Shown piece after piece: positions 46,119 to 49,663 of a stretch of 64,000 nucleotides of DNA. Every line of letters starts with the position of its first letter. Position 1 is the first letter of the stretch. The DNA is from Promethearchaeota archaeon (GTDB lineage: Archaea; Asgardarchaeota; Lokiarchaeia; Sigyniarchaeales; SOKP01): positions 282,810 to 346,809 of the forward strand of contig JAHPZA010000003.1 in assembly GCA_019058445.1 (NCBI GenBank), read 5' to 3'. Under the pieces are notes generated by a model, which had not been told where the DNA came from, did not search any database, and worked only from the letters and a program-made list of their open reading frames with translations. The position numbers were made by a program, and so were the translations under genes.

Positions 46119-46271
46119 TTAATCGCGTTCATAAAATTTGCCTGGTTTTGCACCACAAAATGCCTCAAACTTGAAGAATGGCACAGTTTTTTCACAAGAT
46201 GGACATGCATAGGTTCCAGGAGCTGAATTTTGTAATACATAGTTACAGTTTGAACATATTGCCCACTTCAT
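46119..46271 (-). CDS. Zinc-ribbon microprotein (50 aa), Cys-containing paralog of 49307-49420
   Basis: Manual translation MKWAICSNCNYVLQNSAPGTYACPSCEKTVPFFKFEAFCGAKPGKFYERD*; CxxC-x13-CPxC. An alternative in-frame ATG exists at 46295. Confidence 0.75.
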   Translation of the reverse strand: MKWAICSNCNYVLQNSAPGTYACPSCEKTVPFFKFEAFCGAKPGKFYERD

Positions 46272-46827: not shown

Positions 46828-46863
46828 TCCTTTTTTTTATTAATAAAAAAAAGATGGTAAAAT

Positions 46864-46921
46864 ATATCCAGAACCCTTGCTGGGTTGTCATCGTGCGTCT
46901 CATTTTTTTTCCTTTTTTTAA
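46864..46921 (-). promoter_or_regulatory. 3' half of a SECIS-like element (copy 3) split by IS insertion
   Basis: Minus strand reads ...A-rich loop-AG-ACGCACGA-TGAC-AACCC-AGCAA-GGGTT-CTGGATAT, the same layout as the 3' halves of copies 1 and 2. Confidence 0.7.
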
Positions 46922-48325
46922 GTAGAAAACCATATCTTTTAGGAAATGGATGATCTTGTATAAAAATTATTAATCCCCTTCAGTTCTTACTTTTTTATAG
47001 AGCTTCAGTCAAATATTTATAATAGGATATCAAAAAAGGAGGATAACTCTTGAAAATTAACAAAACAATGAAGCTTCGGCTCTATCCGACCAAAATCCAA
47101 CGAGAACTGTTGAATAAGACATTTGGCTGTTGCCGTCTTCTATGGAATCAGATGTTAGCGGAGCGCAACGAGGTATTTCAAGAATTTAAAGAGAACTCCG
47201 AAACCTTGAGGAATTATAAGTATAAAAAAGAAAAGGATTATAAACAAGAATTTGAGTTTATGAAAGAGGTCGATAGCAAGGCTTTACAATCTACAACCCT
47301 ATACCTAATAGAGGCATTCAATAATTTTTTTAATGGGTTAAAGGTGTCCCGAAAAGTAGGATATCCGAGGTTTAAATCAAAAAAAAGTAAACAATCCTAT
47401 ACTACTTATAACATCAATAGCAATATTAAAATTGATTTTGACCTAAAACATATTAAGCTCCCAAAAATTAAAAAATGGATAAAGTATAAGGATGATAGGA
47501 GTTTTACCGAGCCAATTCGTCATGTAACCGTTTCGAAAACCAAGAGCGGACACTATTACTTGGCCATTTTGATTGAAAAAGAGCTTGATATCTCACCTCT
47601 AACGGAAATCCACGAAGATCGTATAGGAGCATTTGATATGTCAGCCACAAGGTTTCTGATTAGTGAAACTGAAGACTTTTCCAATCCTAGGTTTTATAGA
47701 TCCTCAGAAGCGAGGTTAAAGCAATTGCATCGCCAATTATCTCGCAAAAAAAAGAATTCTCAAAATCGACTGAAAACCAAGCTGAGACTTGCTCGAATGT
47801 ATCAAAAGATTTGGTATCAAAAATATGATTGGACACATAAAACGACCCTTAAACTAGCTAATAAATATGATGTAGTAGTCTTAGAAGACCTTAACATCCA
47901 AGGAATACAAAAATTTAACAGCGGTCTATCTAAATCCGTGACATTAGATTTTTCATGGCATCAGTTTAAAACATTGCTAAAATATAAACTTGAATGGCGA
48001 GGAAAGCACTAACTAGAGGTGAATCGTTTTTTTCCTTCAAGCAAATTATGCTCTGTATGTGGGCATAAAAATATTGATTTAACATTAGCAGAACGCGTAT
48101 GGGTATGTACTGAATGCGGTACACAACATCATAGAGATAAAAATGCGTCAAGCAATCTAAAAAGAGAGGGTATTCGTCTCTTACAAGAAAGAGGAATTAA
48201 AGTCATTATTTGACCTACCGTTGGGACGACGGGAAGTTACGCTTGTGGAGATCTTGTAAGACACCCTTTAAGGTGCTTTGGTCAGGGAAACAAGAATCCA
48301 GATCCTATATGGACTGGTAGTTCAA
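46922..48325 (+). mobile_element. Non-autonomous IS200/IS605-family (IS1341-type, tnpB-only) element
   Basis: Preceded by TTTAA (46917-46921); left-end hairpin ACCATATCTTTTAGGAAATGGA; right-end hairpin then GGTAGTTCAA ending at 48325; no tnpA. Removing it rejoins two halves of one RNA structure. Confidence 0.85.
47050..48213 (+). pseudogene. tnpB: TnpB RNA-guided nuclease with in-frame TAA at 48010-48012
   Basis: KLRLYPT, FGCCRLLWN, GYPRFKSKK, RuvC motifs AFDMS/VLEDL/HRDKNA, Zn ribbon CSVC..CTEC. ORFs 47050-48012 and 48019-48213 are in the same frame, separated by one TAA. Confidence 0.9.
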
Positions 48326-48393: not shown

Positions 48394-48477
48394 TTAGGAT
48401 TTATTAATTTAAAATATGGAAACAATTTATTGGTTAAAATGATTTAAATGTTTAATAACACTCATTAATTTTATAAA

Positions 48478-48542
48478 CCTTAATCCTTGGCTAGGATGTC
48501 AGCAAATGTCTAAAGTTTTTACATTTGCCTCATTCGTTAAGG
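48478..48542 (-). promoter_or_regulatory. Eukaryote-like SECIS element (copy 1), 3' UTR of the UxxU gene
   Basis: CCTTAA-CGA-ATGA-G-GCAAATGT-AAAAACTTTAG-ACATTTGC-TGAC-ATCCT-AGCCA-AGGAT-TAAGG: AUGA/GA core, perfect 8-bp helix II, apical A-run, closing helix I. Confidence 0.9.
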
Positions 48543-48591
48543 AAAGAATTTAAAATTTCAGTTAAGGAATGGTGTATCGATTATCATTTAC

Positions 48592-49107
48592 TTATAAATA
48601 TTTATCAATCGCATCAGTTAATATTTCTATTGTGGGTCTATCTTCTTTACTACCTATATAATACCAAACTATTTCTCCATTTTTTTTAATAAGTACTTTA
48701 GCAGGAAGAGCATTATTAACTTGTAAATCATCATGACCATCGGTTTTTTCTGTTACAAACATATTATATGATTTAGCTATTTTTCCGCCTTTATCAGGGA
48801 TAGTCGTGAAATTAAAATTATTAACTTCTTTCATCTTTTTCAATCGTCTAGTACTATCTTTTGCTATTGCTATTAACTTTACGTTGCGTTTTTCGAACTC
48901 TGACATATTTTTGGTTAAGTATTTAAAGTGTTCTATTCAATATACTCACCATCCCCCTCTAAAGAAGTCGATTAAAACCCCTCGATGGTTCTCAAGCATA
49001 ATCGCTAAATTTGCTTCATTCCCATCAATGTCGGTTGTATCGATAGTAGGAGCTTTGGAACCAATAGGTAATCCTTTATTAGGTATAGAAATATGTAAAT
49101 CTGTCAT
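48592..49107 (-). CDS. AhpC/TSA peroxiredoxin-like selenoprotein with UxxU motif (171 aa)
   Basis: From ATG 49107: MTDLHISIPNKGLPIGSKAPTIDTTDIDGNEANLAIMLENHRGVLIDFFRGGW-TGA-VY-TGA-IEHFKYLTKN, continuing in frame into ORF 48592-48906. The TGAs (48946-48948, 48937-48939) occupy both Cys positions of the family motif F(Y/F)RGxWCPxC; SECIS downstream. Confidence 0.92.
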
Positions 49108-49202
49108 TATTAACAATAAAAACAATAGAAATAAAAAGGATATTGAAATATTTTAAAAGAAAAAATAAAGAAAAATGATTAATTGTGTGTAGCGTTTTTT
49201 AA

Positions 49203-49270
49203 TCCTTAATCCTTGGCTAGGCCGTCAGCATACGTCTATATTTTATACGTCTGCCTCATTCTATTAGGAA
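49203..49270 (-). promoter_or_regulatory. Eukaryote-like SECIS element (copy 2)
   Basis: TTCCTAAT-AGA-ATGA-G-GCAGACGT-ATAAAATATAG-ACGTATGC-TGAC-GGCCT-AGCCA-AGG-ATTAAGGA; 7 of 8 helix II pairs, with compensatory changes relative to copy 1. Confidence 0.88.
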
Positions 49271-49306
49271 TTAAATTAAATTTTTTAATTACGTCAGATA
49301 TATGAT

Positions 49307-49420
49307 TTATCATTTAAATCTTAGTTCCATGAAAAATACAAATCTTCGACAGTTAGGGCAATAATAGTATCCACTCGTATTCTCTTGTATTGTATGTCCA
49401 CACTTTTGGCATATTATCAT
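49307..49420 (-). CDS. Zinc-ribbon microprotein, candidate C-terminal selenocysteine (36 aa + U)
   Basis: MIICQKCGHTIQENTSGYYYCPNCRRFVFFMELRFK-TGA-TAA. Aligns without gaps to the 46119-46271 paralog, with TGA opposite Cys39; SECIS core 50 nt after the TGA. Confidence 0.7.
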
Positions 49421-49663
49421 ATGGTATCATTTAGTTGATAATTTGACATCTTTTAAAGTTTAATTTTATATTTTAAATATTAATTAGCAAATCATATTTA
49501 TATATATAAATCCGAGAAAAAAGTCGCTTTTTTCAGATGAAAACACGTACATAAAATTGCGTAATTAAATTTATATTATCCAACCCTATTATTATATCAA
49601 TTCCTAAAAGTATAATGCATTGAAATATTATCTAAAATATTAACAGAAAGGGGTTGTTTTTTT

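Follow-up and report, generated by a model that had tools for sequence, protein, structure and literature searches.

The closest described counterparts of the gene considered here are selenoproteins of Asgard archaea and bacterial proteins that end in selenocysteine (Sec). Five selenoprotein families were described in a 2016 study of Lokiarchaeota, whose scan starting from selenocysteine insertion sequence (SECIS) elements reported no others (PMC4989117). A homology-driven survey of more than 400 Asgard genomes in 2024 listed seven families (PMC11227280), and a 2026 review counts eleven for archaea (PMC13188914). Among bacteria, a terminal Sec with an apparent double stop is known from SaoC (Cys-Sec-COOH, UGA-UAG), and DUF466 proteins of Campylobacter and Helicobacter end in Lys-Cys-Sec-COOH; terminal Sec is not yet predictable by annotation pipelines (bioRxiv 10.1101/2022.07.06.499078). 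In the current study, we followed up an earlier note on a stretch of 64,000 nucleotides (nt) from a Lokiarchaeial genome (Promethearchaeota archaeon, assembly GCA_019058445.1, contig JAHPZA010000003.1, positions 282,810 to 346,809), hereafter called the window. The note had proposed that an open reading frame (ORF) at 49420-49307 on the minus strand encodes a zinc-ribbon micro-protein with Sec as its last residue. On the comparisons described below, this ORF is very probably a genuine, independently transcribed Sec-encoding gene for a 37-residue protein, and represents a new archaeal selenoprotein family.

The mini-gene, as we call it, is unannotated in this genome. Its minus-strand sequence (49420..49310) comprises 36 sense codons, MIICQKCGHTIQENTSGYYYCPNCRRFVFFMELRFK, and a TGA (49312-49310), after which a TAA follows immediately (49309-49307). 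The features assigned to it are as follows.

49310..49420, minus strand: candidate micro-selenoprotein coding region, with Sec37 encoded by UGA, CxxC at residues 4-7 and CPxC at residues 21-24
49307..49309, minus strand: TAA, the presumed true terminator, directly 3' of the Sec codon
49198..49274, minus strand: predicted mini-gene SECIS (copy 2), eukaryote-like type I, 76.4 bits with the model built here
49451..49475, minus strand: putative promoter-like element ATATAAAATTAAACTTTAAAA, with a TTTAAAA box 37 nt upstream of the ATG
49155..49175, minus strand: oligo-T tract, read in the sequence as a probable terminator-like end of the mini-gene transcript

Much of this layout had been drawn in the earlier note, and its description holds: the ORF ends TGA-TAA at the coordinates given, the AUGA core of the SECIS (49259-49256) begins 50 nt past the TGA, and a T-rich, terminator-like tract (49175-49155) lies 3' of the SECIS.

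To collect orthologues, the peptide was searched against 61 related species genomes, and a profile was then searched against all 135 genomes of the same GTDB family. The short form is present in 56 of these 135 species genomes (E <= 1e-11), and weaker matches to two paralogous subfamilies occur in many more. No family member was detected in 26 other Lokiarchaeial genomes (E <= 1e-4), nor in the 265 genomes of the phylum outside the GTDB family, those 26 included (E <= 1e-7). All 56 mini-gene loci were read, and the 55 copies of standard length differ from one another in nucleotide sequence. Their entropy at codon positions 1, 2 and 3 is 0.93, 0.73 and 1.31, the third position varying most. The mean ratio of nonsynonymous to synonymous differences (pN/pS) is about 0.5 for the 199 pairs in which pS is not saturated; taken over all 1,485 pairs, pS has a median of 0.76. 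Residues C4, C7, C21 and C24, the four metal-ligand Cys, are invariant in the orthologues and are each encoded by both TGT and TGC, and the invariant Lys36 of the Sec forms is written as AAA 30 times and as AAG 20 times. The length of 36+1 codons is constant across eight genera, and eight genera carry the TGA form. By this pattern of substitution, the mini-ORF is a conserved protein-coding gene.

Codon 37 behaves as expected of a Sec codon. Among the 55 standard-length copies it is TGA in 50 and TGT (Cys) in 5, with no other codon and no other end position, and across all loci read there are 51 TGA forms and 5 Cys forms. Each of the 51 Sec-type copies reads Lys-TGA followed directly by TAA or TAG, the five Cys copies end Lys-Cys(TGT)-stop, and two variant copies, that of G013 (with three extra residues) and that of G156, likewise end K-TGA-stop. 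The question of whether homologues would keep TGA or Cys here, on which the earlier note had made its proposal depend, is thereby answered in its favour. The note had also cautioned that the tail ahead of this codon is poorly conserved and that a match to Cys could be due to chance, but the sequence F/Y35-K36-U37-stop proves nearly invariant in the standard-length orthologues of the short family.

The codon after the TGA is equally constrained. Codon 38 of the standard-length Sec-type orthologues is TAA in 41 and TAG in 9, and per-site entropy is 0, 0 and 0.68 at its three positions before rising to 1.4-1.9 in the next codon, which indicates that selection on the frame ends one codon past the TGA and not at the TGA itself. 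For comparison, 12.8% of the ORFs longer than 150 amino acids (aa) in this genome stop at TGA, and a TAA or TAG directly follows the TGA in 5.5% of the long ORFs that end in this way. Coding conservation beyond the UGA therefore runs through one following codon, a stop in 50/50 copies against a background of 5.5%. Conserved coding, alternation of UGA and Cys at codon 37 and an end of conservation after codon 38 are all evident from these alignments.

A side observation concerns the copy in genome G156 (locus L085, G156:C10:33955-35468, minus strand; ORF at reverse-complement positions 301-417), which reads MIICQKCGKILHLDKKTNGYHYCPL-TGA-KSIQYFMVFSFK-TGA-TAA. An additional in-frame TGA sits exactly at the fourth metal-ligand Cys (C24), although this copy has kept an intact frame, its K-TGA-TAA ending and its SECIS. 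The additional TGA is either a second Sec in place of a zinc ligand or else the product of a sequencing error or of a recent nonsense mutation.

The predicted SECIS downstream of the mini-gene has a 5' core (AUGA), helix II, an A-rich apical loop and a 3' core GCUGAC, whose UGA occupies 49227-49225; a small CCUAGCCAAGG hairpin and then the lower stem form its 3' part. The AUGA_GA core and A-rich apical loop fit the type I eukaryotic SECIS-like form described for Asgard archaea (PMC11227280). A SECIS-like pattern occurs twice in the window and in none of 100 shuffled versions. We built a covariance model (R1) from 17 downstream elements, restricted to helix II, which gives six matches (E < 1) in the whole 4.6-Mb genome. 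It locates an element just 3' of 51/51 TGA forms (38-76 bits), usually with 33-55 nt and once with 137 nt between the UGA and the AUGA. At the five Cys loci, the same model finds no SECIS ahead of the next gene; the sole SECIS at those loci lies about 600 nt further on, behind a peroxiredoxin (Prx)-like gene. Whether only TGA forms carry a SECIS was a further point on which the earlier note had hinged, and among the loci read all UGA forms indeed have a predicted SECIS, whereas no Cys form does (0/5 before the next gene).

Helix II covaries in the manner of a conserved stem. Compensatory changes occur at 8/8 pairs among the 17 species, and the covariation score is 0.625 versus 0.237 in shuffles, with 0/500 shuffles reaching as high; with the 3' partners displaced by one to three columns, the score does not exceed 0.16. 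All four nucleotides of the 5' AUGA, three adenines of the apical loop and the A-C of the 3' core are invariant in the 17 species, and the 3' core G is kept in 16/17. Minimum free energy folding of the SECIS region alone was uninformative (z = -0.59); we take the structural evidence from covariation. When the whole window was scanned with Rfam at gathering thresholds, no match was returned; the Rfam SECIS models do not cover this SECIS form. Four independent lines, namely the TGA/Cys exchange at codon 37, the second stop, SECIS presence and SECIS covariation, together argue that the UGA is a Sec codon.

Two individual elements depart from the common form. In G003, the closest relative and the species lacking the 3' core G, the mini-gene SECIS (L016:1386-1462) reads CUAAC where the 3' half of the core otherwise has CUGAC; an AUGA_AA variant of this kind has been reported for some Lokiarchaeial hdrA/frhD genes (PMC11227280). 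In G002, the SECIS is the one located 137 nt past the UGA, and the stretch between the two (L015:1378-1476) retains a fragment that matches the C-terminal 33 residues of a Prx-like protein at 48% identity. This arrangement suggests that the G002 mini-gene may have taken over the SECIS of a largely deleted Prx-like paralogue.

Signals around the mini-gene are compatible with its own transcription. In 31/55 orthologues, a TATA-like box begins at position -36 or -37, and the motif surrounding it is common across genera. Within the 70 nt upstream at the 55 loci (49421-49490 in the window), this motif reads (C/T)TATAA-TT-AA-CTTTAAAA at about -55 to -31, and a TGAT box stands at about -10. A Shine-Dalgarno-like purine run was found upstream at 1/55 loci only, which, together with the TGAT box, suggests that the leader is short or absent. 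G003 has a similar T-run after its mini-gene SECIS.

The mini-gene also has longer relatives that lack the TGA, one of which lies within the window.

46119..46271, minus strand: long Cys paralogue, 50 aa, in which the fifth Cys (in FCGAKP) aligns with Sec37

Six homologues of this paralogue, all unnamed, are found in the protein database at 76-84% identity, and a protein-cluster search with it returned only generic hypothetical, zinc-ribbon or rubredoxin-like clusters. A 27-member alignment and tree resolve three subfamilies: the short form with U or C at its end, as one clade (100/100); a short form with an acidic tail and without the fifth Cys; and a long form of 50-59 aa (clade 100/99) with the motif F-C-G-[AS]-K-P. 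The earlier note had aligned the TGA with Cys39 of the long paralogue without gaps, a pairing that persists in the 27-sequence alignment, where the TGA codon falls in the fifth-Cys column. Conservation of Cys39, which the note had also counted on, is likewise borne out, in that the Sec column holds Cys in 10/12 of the long paralogues aligned and Asp in the other two. Cys in this column of 10/12 long members indicates that the Sec37/Cys39 pairing is right. Within the short form, Cys-ending members occur at two places in the tree, represented by four species of genus g11 and one species of the window's own genus. The starred branches do not force more than one change between Sec and Cys, and a single change is compatible with the short alignment. 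The tree gives no decision on whether Cys or Sec is ancestral.

A model computed with AlphaFold2 from a 19-sequence alignment has a mean predicted local distance difference test score (pLDDT) of 89.5, with strands at residues 2-4, 17-21 and 26-32; the tail (33-37) is not in a strand. The mini-protein is predicted from this model to adopt a three-stranded zinc-ribbon or rubredoxin-like knuckle fold (CxxC...CPxC). Both knuckles and all three strands of such a ribbon are evident in the model, and the metal would be either Zn or Fe. No Pfam family exceeds its gathering score, the best being zf-FPG_IleRS (20.4 bits versus a cut-off of 21.3), with HVO_2753_ZBP, Zn_Ribbon_1 and RUBY_RBDX as lower sub-threshold matches. 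A Foldseek search of the model against the PDB gave no match at E <= 0.001, and its neighbours are small ribosomal zinc ribbons and the rubredoxin-like domain of LapB.

Given that a second predicted selenoprotein gene lies directly downstream of the mini-gene in the window, the ownership of SECIS copy 2 must be settled.

48592..49107, minus strand: Prx-like (AhpC/TSA) selenoprotein gene, Pfam AhpC-TSA 6.2e-22
48472..48548, minus strand: SECIS of the Prx-like gene (copy 1), in its 3' untranslated region (UTR), 72.4 bits

This gene has two in-frame UGA codons (48948-48946 and 48939-48937) in the motif W-U-V-Y-U, and one could suppose that copy 2 is its SECIS, placed in the 5' UTR, and that the mini-ORF simply stops at the TGA with the TAA present by chance or as a back-up. 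Copy 2 does lie between the mini-ORF and the UxxU gene, its sequence is 80-82% identical to copy 1, and a SECIS in the 5' UTR is known for one Methanocaldococcus gene. Nevertheless, we consider this explanation very improbable. The Prx-like gene immediately follows the mini-gene in four genera (g1, g3, g5 and g12) and at each of the five Cys loci, and it is the next gene at 8/51 TGA-form loci. At no fewer than 36 of the 51 loci, however, there is no Prx-like gene within about 1.1 kb of the mini-gene and its element; what comes next there is either a long paralogue that lacks TGA or a gene in convergent orientation. Genera g2 and g11 show several arrangements, in which one or two TGA-free long Cys paralogues, unrelated genes or, directly, the 3' end of a convergent gene come after the mini-gene with its SECIS. 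These loci indicate that the SECIS belongs to the mini-gene and does not act as a 5' leader element of the Prx-like gene. Moreover, the Cys forms stand immediately upstream of a UxxC Prx-like gene, and the spacer of 80-110 nt between them has no SECIS. In the window, an oligo-T run and a TATA-like box part copy 2 from the start of the Prx-like gene, and would fit separate transcripts for the two genes. Therefore the case in which copy 2 is transcribed solely as the 5' UTR of the Prx-like gene, which the earlier note had named as fatal to its proposal, is excluded as a general explanation, other or convergent genes being next in most genomes. Copy 2 may help the Prx-like gene as well, if read-through transcripts exist.

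A somewhat less improbable alternative, although still one to which we give little credence, accepts the gene but not the Sec: a real zinc-ribbon protein of 36 residues would end at the TGA, the TAA would be a safety stop, and the kink-turn-like hairpin would have some other role in the 3' UTR, such as L7Ae binding, stability or termination. Tandem stops do occur at the background rate for TGA-ending ORFs given above, and the tRNA for Sec (tRNA-Sec) was not cleanly found with the Rfam model RF01852. A 36-residue product leaves unexplained, however, why a Cys codon is the sole alternative to TGA, why the element is missing from the Cys forms alone, why it is indistinguishable from the SECIS of bona fide UxxC and UxxU genes of the same genomes, and why TGA, a minority stop, is fixed in all 50 standard-length copies. 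Least credible of all, in our judgement, is that the mini-ORF is not a gene and owes its similarity to a repeat or a conserved non-coding stretch lying 5' of a SECIS. The ORF is very short, and ten orthologue peptides that we looked up yielded 0 matches in a collection of about 15 billion predicted proteins; the ORF has so far escaped gene callers. What argues against a non-coding origin is the codon-position pattern, the synonymous exchange of Cys and Lys codons, the invariant metal ligands, the fixed length of 36+1 codons in eight genera, the promoter-like box at a set distance, the confidently predicted fold and the existence of two conserved paralogous subfamilies.

Of the Sec machinery, SepSecS is present in the host (380 bits), and other UGA/SECIS genes occur in the genome, including the adjacent UxxU Prx-like gene with its own SECIS. 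Several points weigh against a Sec-encoding mini-gene, and readers should keep them in mind. RF01852 finds nothing above its cut-off in this genome or in nine other genomes of the genus, although it matches clear tRNA-Sec genes in other genera of the GTDB family, and the candidate described below is about 161 nt long and interrupted by inserted sequence. The spacing of 33-55 nt between UGA and SECIS is short and falls below the minimum reported for eukaryotic reporters. Because the orthologues are related, counts of 50 overstate the number of independent observations. Homology cannot extend past a terminal Sec, so that the conserved second stop has to substitute for the usual requirement of conservation on both sides of the UGA. 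Lastly, at the genome level little ties the mini-gene functionally to the Prx-like gene, and the two are adjacent in some genera only: the Prx-like gene is present in 39/56 genomes (70%) that have the mini-gene versus 46/79 (58%) that do not, a weak association.

The tRNA-Sec candidate (G000:C6:1059760-1059920, minus strand) lies outside the window, 2.2 kb from SepSecS, and scores 28 bits with RF01852. Read by eye, it has a 9-bp acceptor, G-CCA, an anticodon arm with UCA and a long extra arm; it is probably a tRNA-Sec gene. A 'tRNA-SeC' call made by Aragorn at C1:27020-27126 was rejected, as its 7/5 fold, G discriminator and long extra arm read better as an intron-containing tRNA-Ser(UGA).

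If the UGA is a Sec codon, as we favour, codon 37 would be decoded as Sec under the direction of the SECIS 50 nt downstream, and translation would stop at the adjacent UAA. The selenol carried on the flexible C-terminal tail (Lys36-Sec37) would then be the working group, engaged in thiol/selenol redox chemistry or possibly in the handling of soft metals. In many lineages it may act with the adjacent UxxC/UxxU Prx-like selenoprotein of thioredoxin fold and with the longer Cys paralogues. Given that the UGA is the last sense codon, a failure of Sec insertion would yield a 36-residue protein missing nothing but the reactive residue, and this selenium-free product would be complete but presumably inactive.

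We tentatively propose, with slightly less than even confidence, that the mini-protein is a small redox partner or substrate whose selenol exchanges with UxxC/UxxU proteins or reacts with peroxides; soft-metal binding is the main alternative. A more elaborate scheme, which we regard as rather unlikely in its entirety, is that of a 'selenol arm', wherein a zinc-ribbon handle presents the terminal Sec to form a selenenylsulfide or diselenide with the adjacent UxxC/UxxU protein, and selenium supply sets the proportion of active 37-mer and inactive 36-mer. The mini-protein would in that case be the smallest natural selenoprotein known to us and the first from archaea with Sec as its last residue.

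Were the assignment correct, this would be the twelfth archaeal selenoprotein family, overlooked by homology-based surveys and gene callers alike, and Asgard selenoproteomes would be undercounted, at least for micro-ORFs. The gene and its SECIS together span about 225 nt (49420-49198) and would offer a natural minimal cassette for the eukaryote-like Asgard SECIS. Such a cassette makes testable the minimum spacing between UGA and SECIS, the contest between release factor and EFSec at a UGA that precedes the real stop, and the kink-turn-binding protein involved. The division into Sec and Cys forms within one genus and the possible second UGA at a metal-ligand Cys would amount to natural Cys-to-Sec exchange experiments. 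Furthermore, the recurrent linkage to UxxC/UxxU thioredoxin-fold genes provides a handle on an uncharacterised Prx-like family.

Some further observations concern the neighbourhood. Among the 113 matches listed for Prx-like orthologues at E <= 1e-25 (85 genomes), all have one or two in-frame TGA codons and none is an all-Cys form; UxxU forms (two TGA) are common in the GTDB family, and one broken copy has three TGA plus a TAA. In G003, the SECIS elements of the mini-gene and of the Prx-like gene (L016:699-775) share 61% identity, compared with about 80% in the genome examined here. By eye, the Prx SECIS of G003 resembles a third SECIS copy of the window, a weak partial model match at 46861-46918 (25.8 bits) that is split by an insertion sequence (IS). 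These relationships point to local duplication and replacement of SECIS units. A TnpB-like ORF (47050-48213, plus strand; 320 aa, with a 64-aa zinc-finger continuation past its stop) sits between the SECIS of the Prx-like gene and the long paralogue, and it looks like an IS200/IS605-type insertion that split an ancestral gene cluster.

With regard to novelty, neither the 7 Asgard nor the 11 archaeal selenoprotein families listed to date include the zinc-ribbon micro-protein (PMC4989117, PMC11227280, PMC13188914). Full-text literature searches returned no report of such a micro-selenoprotein, in keeping with the remark of the earlier note that the family was not one it recognised, and the same literature yielded no archaeal precedent for a terminal Sec that precedes a double stop, nor any precedent in which such an ending is combined with a SECIS in the 3' UTR.

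Compared with the systems introduced at the outset, the mini-protein resembles SaoC and DUF466 in that Sec is the last residue, the ORF ends in two stops, Cys occupies the same place in most or some relatives, and annotation pipelines overlooked the gene. The bacterial proteins differ in having a SECIS hairpin right at the UGA and a Sec that adjoins Cys (the CU motif), whereas the mini-protein has a eukaryote-like 3'-UTR SECIS, an invariant Lys before the Sec and an Asgard host. The Sec form is rare in SaoC (3/52) but common in the mini-gene (51/56). Given that there is no relationship in sequence or fold, that the sizes differ, and that the mini-protein ends in K-U or K-C without a vicinal Cys, it is not a member of either group.

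Thioredoxin reductase (GCUG), SELENOK and SELENOS likewise rely on a 3'-UTR kink-turn SECIS and carry Sec at or near the C-terminus of a mobile, unstructured redox tail. These are large or membrane proteins in which Sec is penultimate or antepenultimate, whereas in the mini-protein it is the last residue; there is no homology, although the mobile tail recalls theirs. In its fold, the mini-protein is closest to the archaeal C(P)xCG zinc-finger micro-proteins and rubredoxin-like knuckles, which share the two CxxC knuckles, the length of 30-60 residues and the three-stranded ribbon. The fifth position, occupied by Cys or Sec, is peculiar to the present family, and to our knowledge no member of those families carries Sec.

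The Asgard PrxL genes have the same AUGA_GA core, A-rich apical loop and 3'-UTR position (PMC4989117; PMC11227280), to the extent that one model finds the SECIS elements of both. PrxL genes and the mini-gene are adjacent in several genera, and both are restricted to Sec-using Lokiarchaeia. Their products are unrelated, PrxL being a 171-aa thioredoxin-fold protein with Sec in UxxC, and the mini-protein a 37-aa zinc ribbon with Sec at its end. The mechanism is of a known kind; as far as can be told, the novelty lies in the family, in its host domain and small size, and in the setting of the SECIS in a 3' UTR.

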